A stretch of 64,000 nt of DNA from Gammaproteobacteria bacterium. GTDB lineage: Bacteria; Pseudomonadota; Gammaproteobacteria; Ga0077536. The position numbers and the translations under genes are program-made. Shown in pieces: positions 43,446-55,306 of this stretch. Under the pieces are notes generated by a model. That model made no database searches. It worked only from the letters and a program-made list of their open reading frames with translations, and was not told where the DNA came from. Every line of letters begins with the position of its first letter. The first letter of the stretch is position 1. The stretch is taken from contig JAJFJQ010000062.1 in assembly GCA_021773835.1 (NCBI GenBank), positions 207,322-271,321 on the forward strand, written 5' to 3'.

Positions 43446-44306
43446 ACGGACATCTTAAAGTCAATAGGTTGATGCCGCCGGCATCAAGATAGTGACTCTA
43501 GAATTCGTAGATGGGAGGAGTACCCGCCGGCGCGCCGGGCCCACGAGCATTGGCCTAGGGCCAATGCAACGTGTTTGTGTCTACGACACGCTGCAGTCGC
43601 CGACGTTGAGCGAAGGTCCGCGTCACTACACAAGCGAAGCGCAGTAGTGACGCGGACGAAATCGGTGCCTTGGGCCTTGCCCGCTGGGCCGATTCCTGAA
43701 CTGTGCACGAATGCCCCGCGAATTACGGTGGGAACCCCGCACGTCGGTGACTTGATTTATCCGGATGCCAGCTTCGCGCCCGTCTAGACTCATCCGGCGT
43801 GAACGATTTTATCCGTGGCCACTACGGCAAAGTGGCAACCAAGGCATCGTCGGACCGTGTAACCGATGCATCGGCGCAAGCCGCGGTCCATCTTCAAGCA
43901 AATGACAAACCAATCGGAGCGTCCATCCTCGCCGGCAGTTGCCAGCGATTCAATCATCGAGCGTCCGTTTAGCGAATGTTGCTTAGTGCTCATTTTTTTT
44001 AATGCAGTTAGCCGCTGCAATCTTAAAAGGAGGTGTTTAACCATTGTCGAAACTCACCCGGAAACGGGATCGTTGGATTGCGCGAGAACTTCTTCAACAG
44101 AGGAAAGCTCGCGTTGCCTGTAACCAGGCGCTTTTAGGTTGACTGGGACTGGTGCCCCATGACTGCTCCGCTGTAGCGGTCTTGCCAGCTTCGGCTGTCA
44201 GGAAAGTCGGAAACACTTACCGAAAATCGGAAGCACTGTGAGAAGCCTGAACTACCAACTGAAAATGCTGTGTCGGCATTCCCGCGAAGGGAGTTATGCG
44301 ACGCAG

Positions 44307-45101
44307 ATGAATCGCGAACGCATGCTGACTTTGATCGCGAATGAATTGCACGAGCTCGGATATCGCAAGATGAGCGAGCGTTCCTTGAAACCGAAACATA
44401 TCGATGCGTTAGTGAAGCATTGGTTTGATCAGCGCTTGTCGATCGGAACCATTAAGAACCGCATGGCCGTGATCCGCTGGTGGGCGCACAAGGCCGATAA
44501 GCAGAATGTCGTTGCACGTAGCAACGATCACTATGGGATCTCGGATCGACGATTCATTGCCGATGAATCGAAGGCTAAGTCGGTTACCGAATCGCAATTG
44601 GAAAAGATCGTAGATGCGCACGTCCGCATGAGCCTCGAACTTCAGCAAGCTTTCGGATTGCGTCGAGAAGAGGCGATGAAGATTCAACCGAGCTTCGCCG
44701 ACCGCGGTGACCACATCGTTCTGAAACCAAGTTGGACGAAAGGCGGTAAGGATCGTGCGATCCCGATCCGGACAGAAGCGCAGCGAGACGTGCTCGATCG
44801 TGCGCGGCAACTCGCCGGTCTTGGCTCGTTAATACCGAGCAATCGAAATTATGTCCAGCAGATGCGGATCTACGAGCGCGACACCGTGCGCGCTGGTCTG
44901 TCGAATATGCATGGACTACGGCACGCCTACGCACAGAATCGATACGAAGAATTAACTGGTTGGAAATGCCCCGCGGCCGGCGGCCCGGCAAAGGCATCGC
45001 TGATGTTTGAGCAACGGGTAGTCGATAGAGAGATGCGGCTAACGATCAGCCGTGAATTGGGCCATGAGCGCGAGCAAATCACGGCAGCCTATTGCGGGTA
45101 G
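44307..45101 (+). CDS. Tyrosine recombinase-family protein (second recombinase of the island)
   Basis: C-terminal HGLRHAYAQNRY...GHEREQITAAY motif (His-x-x-Arg ... Tyr). Start chosen at MNRERML with AAGGGAG upstream. The tracked ORF begins at 44238. Confidence 0.6.
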   Translation: MNRERMLTLIANELHELGYRKMSERSLKPKHIDALVKHWFDQRLSIGTIKNRMAVIRWWAHKADKQNVVARSNDHYGISDRRFIADESKAKSVTESQLEKIVDAHVRMSLELQQAFGLRREEAMKIQPSFADRGDHIVLKPSWTKGGKDRAIPIRTEAQRDVLDRARQLAGLGSLIPSNRNYVQQMRIYERDTVRAGLSNMHGLRHAYAQNRYEELTGWKCPAAGGPAKASLMFEQRVVDREMRLTISRELGHEREQITAAYCG

Positions 45102-45227
45102 CGATATCGTTCGTGAAGCGGACACACGCAGCCTGAAAAAACTACGCACTTCGTTGAATTGAATTACTGCAGCGGATCCGGTGCGTCCCTCGTAAGCTCC
45201 CGTTAAGCACACTTAACCAACCTGCGA

Positions 45228-45644
45228 ATGGCCGAAACCATACTGTTAACGATACCTGAAGTCGCAGAACATTTACGCGTCTCAGCCCGGACTGTTCACC
45301 GGCTTATCGCTGCGAAATCGTTACCGGTTTGCAAGGTTGGTCGCTCTGTTCGAATCAGAAGAGTCGACCTCGAGCGTTTTCTGGACCCCGAATCCACGAC
45401 GCCTGATAATAAGACCTGCACGGGGCCGGGTGTGCGTAACCGAGAGGAAAACGTATGCCATACCGTCGCAAAGACAGTACCGTTTGGTGGGCGTCTTACG
45501 TCGATGCAAGCGGACAAAGAGTTAGACGAACTACTGGAACAACGGACCATAAGGAGGCAAAAGCGCTCGAAGCCAAATGGAAGCTTGAAGCGTTCCGAAC
45601 AGGGCAGTGGGGCGAAGAGCCGAGCCGAACGTTCGCGGAGTTGA
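45228..45644 (+). CDS. AlpA-family (MerR-like HTH) excisionase/regulator
   Basis: MAETILLTIPEVAEHLRVSARTVHRLIAAKSLPVCKVGRSVRIRRVDLERFL. The tracked ORF runs on to 45644 and overlaps the integrase start out of frame, so the functional end is uncertain. Confidence 0.6.
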   Translation: MAETILLTIPEVAEHLRVSARTVHRLIAAKSLPVCKVGRSVRIRRVDLERFLDPESTTPDNKTCTGPGVRNREENVCHTVAKTVPFGGRLTSMQADKELDELLEQRTIRRQKRSKPNGSLKRSEQGSGAKSRAERSRS

Positions 45645-46543
45645 TGGTGCCTTATCTAAAGGCGACAGCAACTAAGAAACGCAGTCATGAACGCGATCGA
45701 TACCTAGTCGCGAGATTGCGCGAATTTTTCGGTGAGCATGATCTTCGGTCTTTAAGTCCCCGAGACGTTCGAGCCTATATTGAGCATCGCCAAAGCAAGC
45801 ACGTAGGGCCGGCGACTATAAATCGGGAACTGGGCCTCTTATCCGCGGCACTCAATTGGGCAAAGCGGGACCTGGAGTGGCAGTTACCGAACCCAATAAT
45901 GGGTCGTCTGCTGCAGCCGCCGGAAGGACGGCTACGTTGGCTAAGTCGGCAGGAAGCAGACCGATTGATCGCGGCGGCGCGTAAGCAAAGCCGAGCGAAA
46001 TATTTGGTCGACTTTCTTGAACTGGCTTTGCACACGGGCATGCGCCGGGGCGAGATGCTCAACCTGGAGTGGCAGCGGGTCGATCTTGATGAGGGGCTGG
46101 TCTACTTACGCGGGGCGAATCAGAAGAACGGCAAGTTTGGGAGCGTGCCATTGAACGCAACCGCGAAAGCCGCTTTGGTACGTCGCGATGCGTTCAGACG
46201 GGAAAACTGTCCCTCGTCGTCCTGGGTGTTCGCGCACAAGGACGGCGAACGCGTTGCATCTGTGAAATGCTCGTTCGCAACTGCGTGCGCCACGGCCGGG
46301 ATCGAGGATTTTCGGATCCACGATTTACGCCATTGTTGTGCCGCGTGGCTGGTGCAGGCGGGTGTTTCAATCCGGGCTGTCGCCGAGCTGCTGAGGCACT
46401 CGGATATCCGCGTCACGATGCGCTACGCCCATTTGGCACCGGAAACTGTGCGCGCCGCGGTCTCAGTCTTGGATGCTGAGTCACGATTTGGTCACGGTGC
46501 AGACTTGGATAAACGCGAAAAGGAGGTTAACGCGTTGATTTAA
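45455..46543 (+). CDS. int: Site-specific tyrosine integrase (phage/P4-like)
   Basis: 362 aa with an arm-binding-like N-terminus and HDLRHCCAAWLVQAGVSIRAVAELLRHSDIRVTMRYAHL catalytic box. Its stop lies 1 nt before the tRNA-Val 3' end. Confidence 0.9.
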   Translation: MPYRRKDSTVWWASYVDASGQRVRRTTGTTDHKEAKALEAKWKLEAFRTGQWGEEPSRTFAELMVPYLKATATKKRSHERDRYLVARLREFFGEHDLRSLSPRDVRAYIEHRQSKHVGPATINRELGLLSAALNWAKRDLEWQLPNPIMGRLLQPPEGRLRWLSRQEADRLIAAARKQSRAKYLVDFLELALHTGMRRGEMLNLEWQRVDLDEGLVYLRGANQKNGKFGSVPLNATAKAALVRRDAFRRENCPSSSWVFAHKDGERVASVKCSFATACATAGIEDFRIHDLRHCCAAWLVQAGVSIRAVAELLRHSDIRVTMRYAHLAPETVRAAVSVLDAESRFGHGADLDKREKEVNALI

Positions 46544-46544
46544 T

Positions 46545-46619
46545 TGGTGGGCGATACTGGGATCGAACCAGTGACCCCTGCCGTGTGAAGGCAGTGCTCT
46601 CCCGCTGAGCTAATCGCCC
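46545..46619 (-). tRNA. tRNA-Val (anticodon CAC)
   Basis: The reverse complement GGGCGATTAGCTCAGCGGGAGAGCACTGCCTTCACACGGCAGGGGTCACTGGTTCGATCCCAGTATCGCCCACCA folds as a cloverleaf, with CCA encoded. Confidence 0.85.
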
Positions 46620-47503: not shown

Positions 47504-48913
47504 ATGTCCGTCGTTACCCGTTTCCCACCCAGCCCTACCGGCTACCTACACGTCGGTAGTGTACGCACCGCCTTATTTAATTGGCTTTACGCGCGCAAAG
47601 TGGGTGGTAAGTTTATCCTACGCATCGAAGACACCGACCGCGCGCGTTCAAGCCAGGAGGCGGTGGATATTATTTTTGCGGGCATGGAATGGCTTGGCCT
47701 CGACTACGACGAAGGGCCGTATTTTCAGACGCAACGCTTCGATCGCTATGGCGAAGTGATTGAGCAATTACTCGCGCAAGATAAGGCCTACCATTGTTAC
47801 TGTTCAAAAGACCGCCTCGAAACACTGCGCGCAGAGCAAATGGCGCAAAAACTGAAGCCGCGCTATGACGGTCGATGTCGAGATCGAATAGGTGCGCCGC
47901 CTCAGGGTATTGCGCCGGTTGTTCGCTTGAAGACGCCGCGAGAAGGTGCGGTAGCGATCGAGGATAAAGTGCACGGCTATATAACGACCAGCAATTTAGA
48001 ACTCGACGACCTTGTAATTTCGCGTTCCGACGGTACGCCAACCTACCATCTGACGGTTGTCGTCGACGATATCGACATGGGCGTTACCCATATCATCCGC
48101 GGCGACGATCACATTAACAACACACCGCGCCAAGTTCACATCATCGAAGCACTTGATGCGCCGCGTCCGCTTTATGCGCATGTACCGATGATCAATGGCG
48201 CGGACGGTAAAAAATTGTCGAAACGCCATGGCGCCGTGAGCGTGCTCGAATTTCGCGAACAGGGATTCCTACCCGATGCGCTCACGAACTATTTAGCTCG
48301 CCTCGGCTGGGCACATGGCGATCAAGAAATATTCACCCGCGCTGAACTCATCAACGCGTTTGATTTCGATGGCTTAAACAAATCAGCCGCAACCTTCGAT
48401 TGGGACAAGCTCTTATGGCTGAACCAACAGTACATACAAAACGCTGAACCGGCAGCGCTGCTGGCATTGGCCGCACCATACCTCGAGAGTGCGCAGCTGC
48501 AGCTCGACAAAGGCCCGGATATCGCCGCGGCGGTTGAAGCGCAGCGCACTAGAGCGAAGACCTTGGTCGAGATTGCCGAGCAAAGCCATATGTTCTACGG
48601 TGAATTCATACGCGATGAAGCCGCCGCCAAGAAACATCTGCGGCCGGTTATCGGGCCCGCTTTAAAGGCGATCCAAGGAAAGTTCGCCGCCGTTGAGACG
48701 TGGCATGGAACAGAGCTTAAAGACATCGTTGAGCAGACGGCGGCAGAATTCGATATGAAGATGGGCAAAGTTGCGCAGCCCCTGCGCGTCGCTGTGACGG
48801 GGTCGTCTGCGTCGCCTTCGATCGACACCACGCTCGAACTGATTGGCCGTGAACGTTGCTTGGAGCGTCTCGATGCAGCACTTATTTACATCGCTGAGCG
48901 TGCGGTTGCTTGA
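47504..48913 (+). CDS. gltX: Glutamyl-tRNA synthetase
   Basis: 469 aa with HVGSVRTALFNWLYARK (HIGH region) and KLSKRHG (KMSKS). Confidence 0.95.
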   Translation: MSVVTRFPPSPTGYLHVGSVRTALFNWLYARKVGGKFILRIEDTDRARSSQEAVDIIFAGMEWLGLDYDEGPYFQTQRFDRYGEVIEQLLAQDKAYHCYCSKDRLETLRAEQMAQKLKPRYDGRCRDRIGAPPQGIAPVVRLKTPREGAVAIEDKVHGYITTSNLELDDLVISRSDGTPTYHLTVVVDDIDMGVTHIIRGDDHINNTPRQVHIIEALDAPRPLYAHVPMINGADGKKLSKRHGAVSVLEFREQGFLPDALTNYLARLGWAHGDQEIFTRAELINAFDFDGLNKSAATFDWDKLLWLNQQYIQNAEPAALLALAAPYLESAQLQLDKGPDIAAAVEAQRTRAKTLVEIAEQSHMFYGEFIRDEAAAKKHLRPVIGPALKAIQGKFAAVETWHGTELKDIVEQTAAEFDMKMGKVAQPLRVAVTGSSASPSIDTTLELIGRERCLERLDAALIYIAERAVA

Positions 48914-49038
48914 CACCTAATAGCGCCTAACGTAGTCTGCGCGACCTCGAACGAGTAGCCGCTAAAGAGCTGAAAAAGCAAAGGTTTATTCCAGCTTTTA
49001 CTTTTTCACCAAGCACCTTAAACTGCCTGCTCGCGCAT

Positions 49039-49114
49039 GGGGCCATAGCTCAGCTGGGAGAGCGCCGCAATGGCATTGCGGAGGTCGGCGGTTCGATCCC
49101 GCCTGGCTCCACCA
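49039..49114 (+). tRNA. tRNA-Ala (anticodon GGC)
   Basis: GGGGCCATAGCTCAGCTGGGAGAGCGCCGCAATGGCATTGCGGAGGTCGGCGGTTCGATCCCGCCTGGCTCCACCA. A G3:U70 wobble pair is present. Confidence 0.85.
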
Positions 49115-49319
49115 TTCTTTATTCCCGTCGTATCGGATACTTACCTTATCCGTCATCCTTCAATCGCCGCGGCGCCCATTTTGCGTGCGGAGGGCCTTAT
49201 ACTCACAGCCACAAGGCAGCGTGATATTTTAATCTTAAAACAAATCTATTTTAATGTTAAAGTAATTTCCACGAGGATTAAGACCGGAGCGCCGCGGTCC
49301 GTTGGTGAGGAGGAAACAT

Positions 49320-52073
49320 ATGTCAGCTCGTCCTGAAACACCCGTCAAAAATAAGAAAAAAGTCCCCACTTATTGCTACCAATGTGTCAACGGTCCTGAT
49401 CTGCTTACCGTAGAAGTCGTCGACGGCATCGCGACACAGGTTGAGCCCAATTTCGCTGCCAATAAAGACCATCCGGCCGAAGGCAAGGTTTGTGTTAAGC
49501 CGTACGGCCTGGTGCAGAAGGTGTACAACCCGCATCGCATTCTTACGCCAATGAGACGCACTAACCCCAAAAAAGGCCGGCACGAAGATCCGGGTTGGGT
49601 TGAGACTACTTGGGACGAGGCGCTCGATTTGATCGCGGAAAAGATGAAGGCGACTCGGGAAAAGGGTCTCCTCGACGAGAACGGTGATCCGCGATTCGCT
49701 TTTACGACCGGCGGCGCAGCCACACCCTTTTATTACGCCGGCACGCTCAGTGCGTTTCTCGGGGCCTGGGGACCGTACGACAACAGTCTCGGCGCCGGTG
49801 GTACGGTGAAGTGCTATCACAGTGAACACATGTACGGCGAACTCTGGCACAAGGCCTTCACCGTGATGCCGGATACGCCACGCGCCCAATACGTTATTTC
49901 ATTCGGCAACAATATCGACGCCTCCGGCGGCGTGACCGCTGTGTACCGCCAAGCGAATGCGCGGGCGCGGGGATGGACGCGGATCCAATTCGAACCACAT
50001 CTATCGGTGACCGGCGCTAAGGCAACGGAATGGGTGCCAATCAAGACCAAGACCGATGGCGCCGTGCTGTATGCGATGCTCCACGTGTTGTTGCATGAGC
50101 ACTCGGCCGATGAACTCGATATCAACTTCCTCAAACACACGACCTCTTCACCTTATTTGGTAGCTCCAAACGGCTATTACCTGCGCGATCCGGAAACCAA
50201 GAAACCGCTGATATGGGATCTGCAGATCAATGGACCGGTGCCGTTCGATACGCCAAACACCGATCCAGCGATTGAAGGAAGCTTCGTCGTCCCGCACGCG
50301 ATCGAGGTCGGTGCGGACGACGAGACGTGGACGCATACGGATACGTCAGTCACGACCGCACACGAAAAACTTAAAGCGCACGTTCGCGAAAACACGCCAG
50401 AGTGGGCGGCTGAGATCTCCGACGTACCAGCGGATACTCTGCGGCGCATCGCCAATGAGTTTCTGGGCGCCGCCTGTATCGGCGAAACACATGAGGTCGA
50501 AGGGCGCGTGCTGCCGTTTCGGCCGGTCACGGTTGTCCTAGGTAAGTCGGTGAACAACGGTTGGGGCGCCTACGAATGCGTATGGGCACGCACCGTGATG
50601 CAGGTGCTTGTCGGTGCACTCGAAGTGCCGGGCGGAATGCTCGGTAGCACGACGATCATATCCGGACCCGACTGGGATCGCATGGCCAACGTCTTTCCGG
50701 GCGAAGACGGGTTTATGCATTTTCCATTCAACCCAACCGATAAAGAAAATTGGTTGCAAGCGAATGAAATGCGGCACGCTCATAAGCTGTTAACACCGAT
50801 GGTCGGGGATTCGATGTTCTCCGGCTTGTTCGGATCGACTTCGATTGCCTGGTTGCGTCTGCAAGGCCGCGCGGCCGAGTCGTGGGCGAAACCGCAGCCA
50901 CCGGATGTGTGGTTCGTCTATAAATGCAATCCATCGATATCGTTTTCGGAGACCTCACGTCTCGGTGAGTCGATGGCGCAATTTCCCTTTATGGTCTCGT
51001 TCGCCTATACCGAGGATGAAACCAACCATTTCGCAGACCTGATGCTGCCCGAGGCGATCGACCTCGAGTCGACGCAATTGATCCGCGTCGGTGGGCAACA
51101 CTATTTTGAGCAGCAATGGGAAGCCGAGGGTTGGGTGCTGCGGCAGAAAGTGGTTGAACCACAGGGCGAAGCCAGAGATTTCTCTTGGATTTGTAATGAA
51201 CTCGCACGCAGGGTTGGCATCCTCGAGGCCTACAACGACATGATCAATGTGGGTGCCTGCGGTATACCGTTGAAAACCGATAGTTACGATTACTCGCTCG
51301 ATCCAACGACGGTACACGAACCGGATGTAATTTGGGACGCTGTGTGTAAGGCGGCGAGTGCGGATCTGACCGATGGCAAGGAGGTCAACGATCTCGAATG
51401 GTTCCAAGAAAAGGGTTACAAGGTTCGGCCGTTTTCAAGCATCAATTGGTACCTGTATCCGAAGTTGGTCGATCAGGGCCTGCGCTTCGAATTGCCTTAC
51501 CAAGAACGGATCCTGCGAGTTGGCCAACAACTTGCCAACCGCTTACACGAAAACGGCGTCGATTGGTGGGACACGCAGCTTGAAGAATACGAAGCGTTAC
51601 CGACGTGGAAGGATCTGAACAAACTGTGGGACAACATCATCGAGAAAAATTACGATGTGAAGGCCACTGATTTCCCGTTCTGGCTATTGAGCGCTCGTAG
51701 CATGCAATACGCCTGGGGCGGCAACACCAGCTTACAATTTATTCACGAGGTGGCGAGCAACGTCGCCGGGCACGATGGCATTTTGATCAACGCGAATAAG
51801 GCCGCGGAGTTGGGGATCGGGGAGGGCGACTGGATGGAAGTCAGCTCACCAGTCGGCAAGGCCCATGGTCAGGCACGCTTGCGCCAGGGCATTCGCGAAG
51901 ACGTGATCGTTATGATTGGCCAGTTCGGCCATTGGAAGATGCCATTCGCGAAGGACCTTAAGGTGCCGAGTTTAAACGCGCTCGTTCCCATGCACCCGGA
52001 TTTCCTCGATGGCCATGGTTCGAGCATTGATGCGACAAAAGCTGCGGTTAAAAAAGTGGAGAAGCTAGTATGA
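49320..52073 (+). CDS. Molybdopterin-dependent oxidoreductase catalytic subunit (Mo-bisPGD/DMSO-reductase superfamily) without Tat signal
   Basis: ATG at 49320 lies 7 nt after GAGGAGG. 917 aa. N-terminus CYQCVNGPD...(33)...CVKPYG. RILTPMRRTNPKKG...WDEALD is typical of the family. No RRxFLK. Confidence 0.8.
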   Translation: MSARPETPVKNKKKVPTYCYQCVNGPDLLTVEVVDGIATQVEPNFAANKDHPAEGKVCVKPYGLVQKVYNPHRILTPMRRTNPKKGRHEDPGWVETTWDEALDLIAEKMKATREKGLLDENGDPRFAFTTGGAATPFYYAGTLSAFLGAWGPYDNSLGAGGTVKCYHSEHMYGELWHKAFTVMPDTPRAQYVISFGNNIDASGGVTAVYRQANARARGWTRIQFEPHLSVTGAKATEWVPIKTKTDGAVLYAMLHVLLHEHSADELDINFLKHTTSSPYLVAPNGYYLRDPETKKPLIWDLQINGPVPFDTPNTDPAIEGSFVVPHAIEVGADDETWTHTDTSVTTAHEKLKAHVRENTPEWAAEISDVPADTLRRIANEFLGAACIGETHEVEGRVLPFRPVTVVLGKSVNNGWGAYECVWARTVMQVLVGALEVPGGMLGSTTIISGPDWDRMANVFPGEDGFMHFPFNPTDKENWLQANEMRHAHKLLTPMVGDSMFSGLFGSTSIAWLRLQGRAAESWAKPQPPDVWFVYKCNPSISFSETSRLGESMAQFPFMVSFAYTEDETNHFADLMLPEAIDLESTQLIRVGGQHYFEQQWEAEGWVLRQKVVEPQGEARDFSWICNELARRVGILEAYNDMINVGACGIPLKTDSYDYSLDPTTVHEPDVIWDAVCKAASADLTDGKEVNDLEWFQEKGYKVRPFSSINWYLYPKLVDQGLRFELPYQERILRVGQQLANRLHENGVDWWDTQLEEYEALPTWKDLNKLWDNIIEKNYDVKATDFPFWLLSARSMQYAWGGNTSLQFIHEVASNVAGHDGILINANKAAELGIGEGDWMEVSSPVGKAHGQARLRQGIREDVIVMIGQFGHWKMPFAKDLKVPSLNALVPMHPDFLDGHGSSIDATKAAVKKVEKLV

Positions 52074-52717
52074 CGCGCTATGTAATGACGGCCGACCTAA
52101 ACCGTTGCGTCGGCTGCCAAACCTGCACTGCGGCGTGCAAGCATACCAACGCAACGCCGCCTGAGATCCAATGGCGTAAGGTCTTGGACGTCGAGATGGG
52201 TGAATTCCCCGATGTCGAACGTATCTTTATGCCGGTCGGTTGCCAACATTGCGCCGATCCACCATGCATGCATGTGTGTCCAAGTCAGGCCACCGCGCAG
52301 CGCGACGACGGTATTGTTACCATCGACTACGACCTTTGCATCGGCTGCGGTTACTGCATGGTGGCATGTCCGTATGACGCGCGTTACAAAGTCGACGAGG
52401 CGCGATTTGCCTACGGTAAAAAACCAAGTCTGACAGAGGCCTTGCGGCATGATGAAGGTCGCCTCGGCGTTGCGCAGAAATGTACGTTTTGCGCCGACAG
52501 GATCGATGAGGGCACGGCGAAGGGTTTAACTCCAGGAGTAGATCCCGAGGCGACGCCAGCGTGCGTCAACTCTTGCATCGCCAACGCACTGCAATTCGGT
52601 GATATAGAAGACGAGAACAGCAACGTATCGGAATTGTTGGCCGAGAATACCTATTTTCAAATGCACGAAGAACTCGGTACCGAAACCGGATTTTACTACT
52701 TATGGAATGAAAAGTGA
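52070..52717 (+). CDS. Four-cluster [4Fe-4S] ferredoxin-type electron-transfer subunit (DmsB/PsrB/SoeB-like)
   Basis: Four Cys clusters (CVGCQTCTAAC, CQHCADPPC, CIGCGYCMVAC, CTFCADR). ATGA overlap with the catalytic gene. Confidence 0.88.
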   Translation: MTRYVMTADLNRCVGCQTCTAACKHTNATPPEIQWRKVLDVEMGEFPDVERIFMPVGCQHCADPPCMHVCPSQATAQRDDGIVTIDYDLCIGCGYCMVACPYDARYKVDEARFAYGKKPSLTEALRHDEGRLGVAQKCTFCADRIDEGTAKGLTPGVDPEATPACVNSCIANALQFGDIEDENSNVSELLAENTYFQMHEELGTETGFYYLWNEK

Positions 52718-53592
52718 CGATAAGCTTCGGATCGAAATTACAGACAAACTGGGACTGGCGCGCGGCGTTCAATTTTATGTTCGGCGGAAGCGGTAGCGCG
52801 CTGTTGCTCATGATGGCAATATTCGCCGCGCCGCAGGCCGCACCGTTGGCCTTGGCGCTAGTGGCGCTCGTATTGGTTGGGTTTGGTCTGTTGATGGTGT
52901 GGCTAGAGATTGGCCGACCGTGGCGTTTCTTGCATGTCTTTTTTCATCCGCAGACATCGTGGATGACCCGAGAGGGCTCGGTCGGAACGGTGCTGTTCCC
53001 GGTAACAATCGCCGGGGCGCTAATGCATTCCGTGATGCTGCTGGCGTTTGCTGCAGTCCTCGGCTTCGTCTTCCTCTATTGCCAAGCCCGTATATTGAAA
53101 GCGGCGGCCGGCATACCGGCGTGGCGTGAACCGGCCATTGTTCCGCTGATCATCTCAACCGGTTTGGTCGAAGGGACCGCTATCGCGATGATGTTTTTCC
53201 AAGGAATGAATTCAGCAGCACTGTGGATGCCCGGATTATTCACCCTATTTATCGCTGCGAGGCTATGGATGTGGTTTGCCTACCGCGACGCGTTAGCGCG
53301 CGGCAAGGCGCCGGCAGGGACATTGCAGGCGCTAACGAAAATGCACCGCGAATTCATCATCGCCGGCTGCATTGTGCCGTTGCTGTGCGTATTAATGACC
53401 TTCGCATTCGAACTCGGGAGTTGGGGCACCTTCCTTGGCGGCGCGGTTGCGCTCATATCCGGTTGGCGCTTGAAATATGCCATTGTCGTCAAAGCGTCCT
53501 TCAAGCAAGGCTACGGGATCGGGAAGCTCAGAAAAGGGCGGCCAATCATAAAACCGCCGGTACGCAGAGCAGGCGATCCGATCCAACTTTAA
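52714..53592 (+). CDS. Integral membrane anchor subunit (NrfD/DmsC-type)
   Basis: 292 aa, polytopic and hydrophobic. Start overlaps the FeS gene stop (GTGA). Confidence 0.7.
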   Translation: MTISFGSKLQTNWDWRAAFNFMFGGSGSALLLMMAIFAAPQAAPLALALVALVLVGFGLLMVWLEIGRPWRFLHVFFHPQTSWMTREGSVGTVLFPVTIAGALMHSVMLLAFAAVLGFVFLYCQARILKAAAGIPAWREPAIVPLIISTGLVEGTAIAMMFFQGMNSAALWMPGLFTLFIAARLWMWFAYRDALARGKAPAGTLQALTKMHREFIIAGCIVPLLCVLMTFAFELGSWGTFLGGAVALISGWRLKYAIVVKASFKQGYGIGKLRKGRPIIKPPVRRAGDPIQL

Positions 53593-53833
53593 CGACTAGA
53601 ATCGTGTGTGAATCGAGCCACGATTTGCGGCTGCGCTCGTGCAGGTCCACGCGTACTAGTGGACAACCCCAAAAACCGTTAGAATGCGCCACTCGGTTTT
53701 GCCAACGCAATCGCATCTCATTGATTTACAAACAGATGTTCAGCGGCAATAGCGCGGACCTGCACGGCTCTAAAACGTGTAGATCGACCAAACGTCGGGC
53801 TCGTAAAACCAGCCCACTGTTATTGGACAACAT

Positions 53834-53909
53834 GTCCCCATCGTCTAGAGGCCTAGGACACTGCCCTTTCACGGCGGCAACAGGGGTTCGAATCCCCTTG
53901 GGGACGCCA
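53834..53909 (+). tRNA. tRNA-Glu (anticodon TTC)
   Basis: GTCCCCATCGTCTAGAGGCCTAGGACACTGCCCTTTCACGGCGGCAACAGGGGTTCGAATCCCCTTGGGGACGCCA. Confidence 0.9.
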
Positions 53910-53916
53910 AAAAAAT

Positions 53917-53946
53917 AAACCCGCCTTATGGCGGGTTTAATTTTTT
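53917..53946 (+). terminator. Rho-independent terminator of tRNA-Glu
   Basis: CCCGCC-TTAT-GGCGGG hairpin followed by TTTAATTTTTT. Confidence 0.75.
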
Positions 53947-54400
53947 GTGTCCCCAAGGATTGATTCTCACCCCCCTGGTTCGACAGATTGCGCAAAGCAA
54001 TCTGGACGCACGCAGTGCGCCCCGCAGGGGTGAGCAAACAAGCCTTTGTTTGCGAATCTATCTCCGCGATCTGTCTAGCACGATCCCACACACTGGCGGG
54101 TTTAATTTTTTGTGTCCCCAAGGATTGATTCTCACCCCCCTGGTTCGACAGATTGCGCAAAGCAATCTGGACGCACGCAGTGCGCCCCGCAGGGGTGAGC
54201 AAACAAACCTTTGTTTGCGAATCTATCCCCGCGATCTGTCTAGCACGATCCCACACACTGGCGGGTTTAATTTTTTGTGTCCCCAAGGATTGATTCTCAC
54301 CCCTCTGGTTCGACAGATTGCGCAAAGCAATCTGGACGCACGCAGTGCGCCCCGCAGGGGAGAGCAAACAAGCCTTTGTTTGCGAATCTATCCCCGCGAT
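53929..54400 (+). repeat. Three tandem copies of a ~165 bp structured repeat
   Basis: Unit boundaries at 53929, 54094 and 54259 (period 165). Copies differ by 1-4 substitutions. The third copy decays after ~54395. Confidence 0.85.
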
Positions 54401-54511
54401 CGATTTGTCACCGAGGTGCTTCAATTGGGGGGGTATTCTATGAGCCCCTAATAAGTAAATATCCCAAAAACGTTTCCGCGGAAACGTTTTCATTAGACTC
54501 AGCAGAAAAAT

Positions 54512-55306
54512 TCAGTAAACCAACACCACAGGCCGCACGCCCATGCCGTCGCCGTCCTGAATGTTCAGCGGCGCACCAACGAAATACATGCGTTGTTTAC
54601 CCAACAGCCGCTCGACGTTGACCAATTGTTCATAAATCGCGATACCGCGGGAAAGAAAGGCGTGATGGGCGGGGAACGCTCTCGCGGCCTCTGATTCGGC
54701 ATTCACCGGCGTCTTGTCGGTCATGCTCCAGACACTGAAGGCGTCTGTGCCGAACGCGCGTACGGGAATCTTCGCCAGGTATTCGGCCGCTTCGTACGTT
54801 AATGCGATGGTTTCCGGCACCTCGGTATCGGAGCGCGGTGGCGTAAACCCTGTGTAAATTACGACGATATCCCCGGATTCAATTCCCCGATCTTCGACCA
54901 TCTTTTGGGTAATCGATCTGCCAACCGAAAGATCGCTGAAATCGAACACTTTCAAGGGGCCAGCGAACGATTCGATCGAGTAACTGTCGAGGCCGCCGCC
55001 AAGTCCCATGTGGTTCGGTGCGTCCACGTGCGGGCCGGCATGATTGAACAAGGTGTAGTATGCGTCCGAACCGGACACCGGTCCGAACTTCCACGGGATG
55101 ACGTTAAACGAGTTCGATTCCGTAAAGCCGAAGTCTGCCATCAGTTTCTTACCCCAGAATCGCTGTGGTAGATCCTCCGTGACGAGTGCGCCGAGATCGA
55201 TGATTTCTTTTGGCTGCGGTACCTCTGCTTGTGGGTTGCGATCAGGTTGGCCGCAGGCGAGCAACGATCCGTACAGAAATGTTGCGAGGATGAATCTTGA
55301 CGTCAT
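54512..55306 (-). CDS. Cyclase-family (kynurenine-formamidase-like) lipoprotein
   Basis: Lipobox LLACG after an N-terminal hydrophobic segment. Metal motif NHAGPHVDAPNHMG. Confidence 0.7.
   Translation of the reverse strand: MTSRFILATFLYGSLLACGQPDRNPQAEVPQPKEIIDLGALVTEDLPQRFWGKKLMADFGFTESNSFNVIPWKFGPVSGSDAYYTLFNHAGPHVDAPNHMGLGGGLDSYSIESFAGPLKVFDFSDLSVGRSITQKMVEDRGIESGDIVVIYTGFTPPRSDTEVPETIALTYEAAEYLAKIPVRAFGTDAFSVWSMTDKTPVNAESEAARAFPAHHAFLSRGIAIYEQLVNVERLLGKQRMYFVGAPLNIQDGDGMGVRPVVLVY

Follow-up and report, generated by a model that had tools for sequence, protein, structure and literature searches.

What is the tandem array that follows the tRNA-Glu gene of this uncultured gammaproteobacterium, and how did it arise? 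In the window (the whole stretch of DNA analysed, 64,000 nucleotides) there is a single tandem array, at 53929-54401, with a period of 165, 2.9 copies, 98% matches and no indels (TRF score 918). It starts 19 nt past the end of the tRNA-Glu gene, and its base composition is that of its surroundings.

Position and identity of the repeat units

The units of the array are as follows.

53929-54093: repeat unit 1, 165 bp (TRF and direct-repeat search)
54094-54258: repeat unit 2, 165 bp, with two differences from unit 1 (TRF, repeat search and alignment)
54259-54400: high-identity part of repeat unit 3, 142 bp, with three differences from unit 1 or unit 2

A first-pass annotation of this DNA had described three tandem 165-bp units after tRNA-Glu with more than 97% identity between copies. 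The array is confirmed, with 2.86 high-identity copies in place of three. Between units 1 and 2 there are two differences in 165 positions. Unit 3 has three differences from each of them in its first 142 nt, after which ungapped identity is lost, and the identity value given for the copies therefore holds for unit 3 over these 142 nt. There are four substitutions among the copies in all, none of which is compensatory. The feature is real, and its earlier description is correct apart from the copy number and the distal end.

A misassembled repeat or a mixture of strain variants could also be proposed to explain the copy number or the array itself. In the Logan contigs of SRR15505512, the flanking genes are identical to those of the window and the contigs break on both sides of the array, inside the tRNA gene (L004) and 28 nt into unit 3 (L001). 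Short-read graphs thus cannot resolve the region, which is the behaviour expected at repeats. An assembly artefact is nevertheless quite improbable: the junction CACACAC-TGGCGGG requires at least two tandem copies, each copy carries private substitutions, the distal junction of the array is independently reproduced in L001, and the degenerate fourth unit described below is an evolutionary signature and not the product of an assembler.

Open reading frames across the array

At 165 nt, the period is a whole number of codons (55), and each strand has one frame without stops across the array. The two ORFs that result are listed here.

53726-54493: minus strand, spurious ORF of 255 aa that crosses the array and runs antisense through tRNA-Glu, starting in a terminator hairpin
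53945-54451: plus strand, spurious ORF of 168 aa that crosses the array from a TTG start in the terminator T-run, with no Shine-Dalgarno sequence

The 255-aa ORF corresponds to predicted protein P0121 of the 455-kb NCBI contig and forms a singleton cluster, while the 168-aa ORF is absent from the protein collection. Among 5.8 billion proteins, a search with the two translations finds only P0121 itself and ORFs that are antisense to tRNA-Glu in unrelated organisms. No Pfam family is found above threshold for either ORF (the 168-aa ORF has one sub-threshold match). The codon log-likelihood per codon is -0.09 for the 168-aa ORF and -0.03 for the 255-aa ORF, compared to 0.12-0.28 in 12 real genes of the window. 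The GC1/2/3 pattern of both ORFs is flat and likewise outside the range of these 12 genes. As they have no homologues in this collection, no Pfam domain above threshold and no coding signature, both ORFs are artefacts. The array is intergenic, as the first-pass annotation had it.

These results also bear on whether a repeat protein built from 55-residue units is encoded by one strand or the other of the array. The period and the open frame on each strand are those that such a protein would have, and in the plus frame two of the four substitutions are silent. Against this stand the lack of homologues among those 5.8 billion proteins, other than the sequence itself, and of any Pfam domain above threshold, codon statistics outside those of all 12 real genes, and the positions of the ORFs themselves, the minus-strand ORF lying antisense to a tRNA and starting in a terminator hairpin and the plus-strand ORF starting at a TTG in a T-run. 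A protein-coding array is extremely improbable.

The terminator and the quasi-palindrome

The left boundary of the array involves three overlapping features.

53834-53909: plus strand, intact tRNA-Glu(UUC) gene (ARAGORN; Rfam tRNA, 56.8 bits)
53908-53925 and 53930-53947: plus strand, arms of the tRNA-Glu intrinsic terminator hairpin, bidirectional in appearance, with loop TTAT (inverted repeat, terminator scan and fold)
53883-53973: quasi-palindrome of approximately 90 bp with its apex at 53926-53929 (local alignment, inverted repeats and MFE fold)

The terminator scan places the hairpin TAAACCCGCC-TTAT-GGCGGGTTTA and its T-run at 53916-53939, with matches on both strands. The arms form an inverted repeat of 18 nt with 94% complementarity, and the hairpin has a predicted fold of -24 kcal/mol (z -6.7). 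Because the array starts at the last base of the loop, every unit opens with the right terminator arm, GGCGGGTTTAATTTTTTG. The units had previously been said to begin with the 3' half of the tRNA-Glu terminator, and this is what is found at all unit starts.

The first 45 nt or so of each unit repeat, in inverted and diverged form, the 43 nt just before the terminator loop. When aligned locally to the tRNA and its trailer, the minus strand of the unit has a score of 47 (shuffles: 15.2 +/- 2.1, maximum 23). The plus strand has a score of 16 (shuffles: approximately 15), and so there is no same-strand similarity. The tRNA end, the terminator and the unit start therefore make up a single quasi-palindrome. 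Its left arm consists of the tRNA-Glu T-arm, the acceptor 3' strand and the A-rich left terminator arm, and its right arm is the inverted copy in unit 1. The similarity between the arms is greatest beside the apex, and the loop at this apex is the left boundary of the array. In the MFE fold of the tRNA with unit 1, the long palindrome hairpin displaces the acceptor and T arms of the tRNA. Slippage at the terminator had been put forward as the origin of the array. Slippage or recombination at this site fits the position of the left boundary in the loop of the terminator, where the long palindrome has its apex.

Alternatively, the array could have descended from a duplicated, convergently oriented tRNA-Glu gene or from an integration (att) site, the inverted segment being its remnant. 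The minus strand of each unit has a 45-nt segment that resembles the T-arm, acceptor end and trailer of tRNA-Glu; the 3' ends of tRNA genes are well-known targets of integration, and two integrase genes are found at tRNA-Val in the same window. However, the copy is inverted and not direct as attL and attR would be, its similarity to the tRNA ends at the T-arm with the rest of the unit failing to align, and neither strand of the array contains a tRNA-like gene according to ARAGORN. Furthermore, tRNA-Glu is not flanked by an integrase, those of the window being located at tRNA-Val. An origin of this type is improbable.

The distal end and the age of the array

Beyond the high-identity part of unit 3, the array continues in a degenerate form.

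54401 to approximately 54458: degenerate in-register continuation, corresponding to unit positions 143-165 followed by 1 to approximately 35, roughly 60% identical, with indels

In an in-register global alignment, a test that was chosen a priori, this segment scores 5 against the bases with which the unit should continue, while 3000 segments of 60 nt drawn at random from the window score 3 at most. When the unit is rotated through all 165 possible starting points, registers 137-143 fit best. Aligned locally and with no register imposed, the right flank shows no significant similarity to the unit by itself. Counting the decayed distal copy, the length of the array is approximately 3.2 units.

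This degenerate partial unit indicates that the array is older than its 98% identity implies. The first-pass annotation took the near-identity of the copies as a sign of recent amplification, which appears to be correct for the inner copies, in the sense of recent homogenization or re-amplification, but not for the array as a whole. The 98-99% identity of the inner units would thus be a record of this later event and not of the age of the array, whose long persistence the old distal remnant would imply. It could also reflect selection instead of neutral concerted evolution.

Structure of the repeat unit

Each unit contains a multi-hairpin core.

54127-54223: multi-hairpin core, shown for unit 2, with the same core at 53962-54058 and 54292-54388 (MFE and centroid folds, both strands)

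The outer helix of the core (GATTC/GAATC) encloses the CTCACCCC/GGGGTGAG helix and the hairpin GCAAACAA-NCCT-TTGTTTGC. The CTCACCCC/GGGGTGAG helix in turn holds two hairpins, CAGATTGC-GCAAA-GCAATCTG and CGCAC-GCA-GTGCG. Most of these elements had been described previously, and for two of them the description applies to every unit: CAGATTGC-GCAAA-GCAATCTG is exact in all three (with no matches in shuffles) and GCAAACAA-(G/A)CCT-TTGTTTGC is also found in all three. The CTCACCCC/GGGGTGAG helix is whole in units 1 and 2 only, as one of its pairs is broken in unit 3 (GGGGAGAG, T>A).

The characterization of the unit as highly structured is borne out by comparison with shuffles, with a single unit folding better on both the plus strand (z -3.8) and the minus strand (z -4.3). 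Nearly all of the pairs are Watson-Crick, such that both strands fold; the hairpins are palindromes at the DNA level, and the fold does not indicate which strand is transcribed. A functional RNA would also be predicted to show a z-score of about -4. The unit is complementary to the 3' half of tRNA-Glu, with a predicted duplex of -43.3 kcal/mol (shuffles: -29.8 +/- 3.7 kcal/mol). Pairing of the tRNA-Glu leader with the unit, as in a processing stem, is no better than in shuffles (z -0.45).

Flanking genes and transcription signals

Downstream of the array is a gene in the opposite orientation.

54512-55306: minus strand, convergent cyclase-family gene, kynurenine-formamidase-like (Pfam PF04199, E-value: 9e-17; homologues)
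54467-54490: minus strand, terminator hairpin of the cyclase-family gene, with perfect 12-nt arms AAAACGTTTCCG/CGGAAACGTTTT (inverted repeat and folds)

The array is thus situated between the terminators of two convergent units, tRNA-Glu on the plus strand and the cyclase-family gene on the minus strand. This position, the inverted tRNA segment of each unit and the degenerate distal end are all new with respect to the first-pass annotation. The neighbours of tRNA-Glu are padBCD-like and cyclase-family genes and not integrases. The best-named homologues of the proteins encoded here are from Woeseiaceae or from unclassified Gammaproteobacteria MAGs.

The gene order at 47504-53909 is gltX, tRNA-Ala(GGC), a padBCD-like phenylacetyl-CoA:acceptor oxidoreductase operon (49302-53592) and tRNA-Glu. 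In another organism (L007, 6525-6752), an identical tRNA-Glu is found 77 nt after tRNA-Ala(GGC), and the 4.3-kb pad operon therefore looks to have been inserted into a former tRNA pair. The approximately 180 nt upstream of tRNA-Glu (53655-53833 in the window; L011 from ERR14231557, 4487-4670; L012 from ERZ23495043, 2905-3090) include a -10-like box, TTAGAATGCGCC. In relatives with 87% and 83% protein identity, 53655-53833 is much better conserved than the DNA just past the padD stop codon, which suggests a conserved promoter and a leader of roughly 140 nt. RNAalifold proposes hairpins in this leader, with no compensatory pairs in the three sequences. Elsewhere in the window, tRNA-Val(CAC) (46545-46619, minus strand) directly adjoins two integrase genes, 45455-46543 (Phage_integrase, PF00589, E-value: 4e-35) and 44238-45101 (Integrase_1 / Phage_int_SAM_2). 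The region from 44238 to 46619 is probably the edge of a genomic island integrated at tRNA-Val.

A scan with the sigma-70 consensus alone finds no sigma-70-like promoter on either strand of 53500-54700. The unit junctions, which carry an orphan right terminator arm, fold no better than shuffles (z about 0). With Rfam, only the three tRNAs reach the gathering score in the DNA searched. The earlier suggestion of a tandemly amplified small RNA is not sustained by these results, the units having no sigma-70-like promoter, no stable terminator at their junctions and no Rfam family at threshold.

RNA could instead be produced from the array by read-through of the tRNA-Glu terminator, with the precursor cut into stable, functional multi-hairpin RNAs of approximately 165 nt in the manner of an RtT-like structured trailer. 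The architecture parallels that of the E. coli tyrT/RtT locus, the units fold strongly and are each complementary to the 3' half of tRNA-Glu, the inner units are still 98-99% identical in an array that appears to be old, and the AaHKsRNA22 model is weakly matched (see below). On the other hand, the tRNA has a good intrinsic terminator of its own ahead of the array, the RtT model is unmatched even at permissive thresholds and the units have no sigma-70-like promoters of their own. Both strands fold equally well, as DNA palindromes should, and a homologous element was not found in the collections searched. This explanation is unlikely overall, though it is the main rival to the reading preferred here. 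Candidate functions for such a trailer RNA include modulation of the stringent response, activity as a sponge and sequestration of the tRNA-Glu acceptor strand by the 13-nt antisense segment of each unit.

A more specific proposal is that the units are trailer RNAs made by regulated read-through, with a 5' segment antisense to the tRNA-Glu acceptor and T-arm, and that the array is a multi-copy decoy; there is little likelihood of this. The putative decoy would pair with precursor or mature tRNA-Glu, or with fragments of it, and so tune its maturation or a stringent-type response.

Searches for related sequence

Other than the terminator arm itself, no full or partial copy of the unit is present in the remaining 63.5 kb of the window. 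Public collections were searched for the unit using exact scans with 21-25-mers and blastn. In the exact scan of GTDB representative genomes, the 21-mer CAGATTGCGCAAAGCAATCTG has one match, in the Paracoccaceae MAG JANPOY010000076.1 (L002). The match is an intergenic hairpin (L002, 5560-5595) identical to CAGATTGCGCAAAGCAATCTG, with flanks that are 85% identical over 39 nt and unalignable beyond approximately 39 nt, and with no tRNA nearby. Based on the short flank similarity and the lack of a tRNA, it was judged to be due to chance or convergence, though the two sequences may yet be related. The same 21-mer has one match in JGI metagenome contigs (L003), which is inside a coding region and is attributed to chance. 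Three patterns gave no matches in viral contigs, and plasmids and phages, searched by blastn in 'distant' mode, have only two marginal matches, of 46 nt and 35 nt. In a permissive Rfam scan of 53400-54700, the AaHKsRNA22 model matches the three near-identical copies with 25.8-28.4 bits (gathering score: 39.8); the best match, of 28 bits, has an E-value of 0.006 for a 1.3-kb search. A database check of the unit, which had been recommended, returned no related sequence in the collections searched and no Rfam family at the gathering score.

These searches are relevant to the possibility of a mobile or dispersed repeat (REP/BIME- or MITE-like) that was locally amplified. The unit is highly palindromic and about the size of a MITE, and its intergenic position between convergent genes is usual for REP elements. 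Such an origin is very improbable: there is no other copy in the remaining 63.5 kb, and no meaningful match in the genome, metagenome, viral, plasmid or phage collections. The unit has no evident terminal inverted repeats or target-site duplication, as its termini (TGGCGGGTTT... and ...CCCCGCGATC) share GCGGG only and there is no flanking direct repeat. The exact-period head-to-tail layout is also unlike that of REP clusters, which are not known to be built in this way. The term REP-like, used in the first-pass annotation, is not supported by the searches of the window and of the public collections.

Relatives of the flanking genes indicate how the locus varies. In cyclase homologues with 64-67% identity, the gene is not beside a tRNA. 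In a 91% cyclase relative, the contig ends 87 nt past the stop codon, and those bases of the spacer are already unalignable. P0129 is a C-terminal cyclase fragment of 145 aa from a relative of roughly 91%, on an ENA contig of 1,235 nt with approximately 800 nt beyond the stop codon. In padD relatives with 87% and 83% identity, the tRNA-Glu promoter/leader is well conserved and the contigs end at or inside the tRNA. In padD relatives with 70% identity, Usp genes take the place of tRNA-Glu.

Proposed origin of the array

The boundaries of the array, the palindrome, the identity gradient and the lack of sigma-70-like promoters and of coding signal are directly seen. The best reading of the locus is that the array is a product of DNA-level instability and not a set of independent genes. 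Specifically, it is moderately probable that the array is a VNTR-like tandem duplication of the non-coding tRNA-Glu 3' spacer, palindrome-driven and locus-specific. We infer both how the copies recombined and that the array is neutral.

The proposed model for the formation of the array is as follows. A hairpin or cruciform would form at the palindrome, causing replication to stall or break at the apex. Slipped-strand mispairing, template switching or unequal sister-strand exchange could then duplicate the 165-bp segment. The inner copies would afterwards be kept uniform, and the copy number changed, by unequal crossing-over or gene conversion, while the edge copy diverges. Under this model, the hairpins of the unit would be those of the ancestral spacer, multiplied along with it. 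Transcription of the array, if any, would presumably occur by read-through of the tRNA-Glu terminator and, by analogy with RtT from tyrT, might yield a stable multi-hairpin trailer RNA. Any effect of the array, for example as a spacer or insulator between the convergent units, would be secondary. Nothing shows the array to be a new RNA gene or a mobile element, and it is most likely a lineage-specific, ordinary but unusually neat tandem duplication.

If the array is only a palindrome-seeded minisatellite, its value is mainly practical: it breaks short-read assemblies, it has yielded a spurious 255-aa 'protein' in public data, and it might serve as a marker for strain typing. It is also a clean natural case of a tandem array that begins exactly at the apex of a terminator palindrome and has a decayed edge copy, and as such could help in understanding how duplications are seeded by terminator hairpins.

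Comparison with known systems

The closest parallel in layout is the tyrT-tyrV/RtT array of E. coli (RF00391). With E. coli K-12 as a positive control, tyrV is followed by a 178-bp array of 3.1 copies with 95% match and four RtT matches of 133-137 bits, and this array is annotated with rttR and tpr. Both loci have a structured unit of approximately 170 bp in about three head-to-tail copies directly after a tRNA gene, both units share sequence with the 3' end of the tRNA, and both arrays contain dubious small ORFs (tpr in E. coli, P0121 here). The tyrT repeats are reportedly co-transcribed, Rho-terminated and processed. Unlike that locus, an intrinsic terminator is found here between the tRNA and the array. 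The E. coli array overlaps the last 19 nt of tyrV in direct orientation, whereas the tRNA-like segment here is inverted and palindromic with the tRNA. The RtT covariance model (45-bit threshold) is unmatched in 53400-54700 even at E <= 10. RtT elements recur at several tRNA operons (PMC4986893), while the present unit was found at one locus. The array is therefore RtT-like in architecture but not a member of the RtT family. If its RNA is expressed and pairs with tRNA-Glu, the array would add a second case, evolved independently, to the RtT-type repeats distal to tRNAs, which are poorly understood; if it acts as a decoy, it would represent an RtT-like system that arose separately and has an explicit mechanism of tRNA pairing.

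Three non-coding RNA systems share single aspects of the locus. The 3'ETS-leuZ of E. coli, an sRNA sponge, is a single short trailer that ends at the terminator. It is similar to the array in that it is non-coding, lies directly 3' of a tRNA and includes the operon terminator, but the array here is repeated and lies beyond the terminator. The tandem sRNA arrays NsiR1 (Anabaena) and PrrF1/2 (Pseudomonas) also consist of tandem structured non-coding units. These have a promoter and a terminator for each unit, unlike the present array with no sigma-70-like sites and no terminator stem at its unit junctions. AaHKsRNA22 (RF02902, Aggregatibacter sRNA 22) resembles the unit in that three unit hairpins align over the full model. 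Membership in this family was rejected, as the best score is below the gathering score (28.4 < 39.8 bits), two of the model's five helices stay largely unpaired in the alignment and the organism is unrelated; the paper that describes this sRNA offers no context for it.

VNTR or minisatellite loci such as the mycobacterial MIRU-VNTRs provide the remaining comparison, and in general terms the array would count as a bacterial minisatellite. MIRUs are a dispersed family with units of 40-100 bp at many loci, while the unit described here is 165 bp, highly structured and, within the searches, present at one locus. In common with VNTR loci, the array is intergenic and head-to-tail, its inner units are nearly identical and its edge unit is decayed, its period is a multiple of 3, and short-read assemblies break at it.
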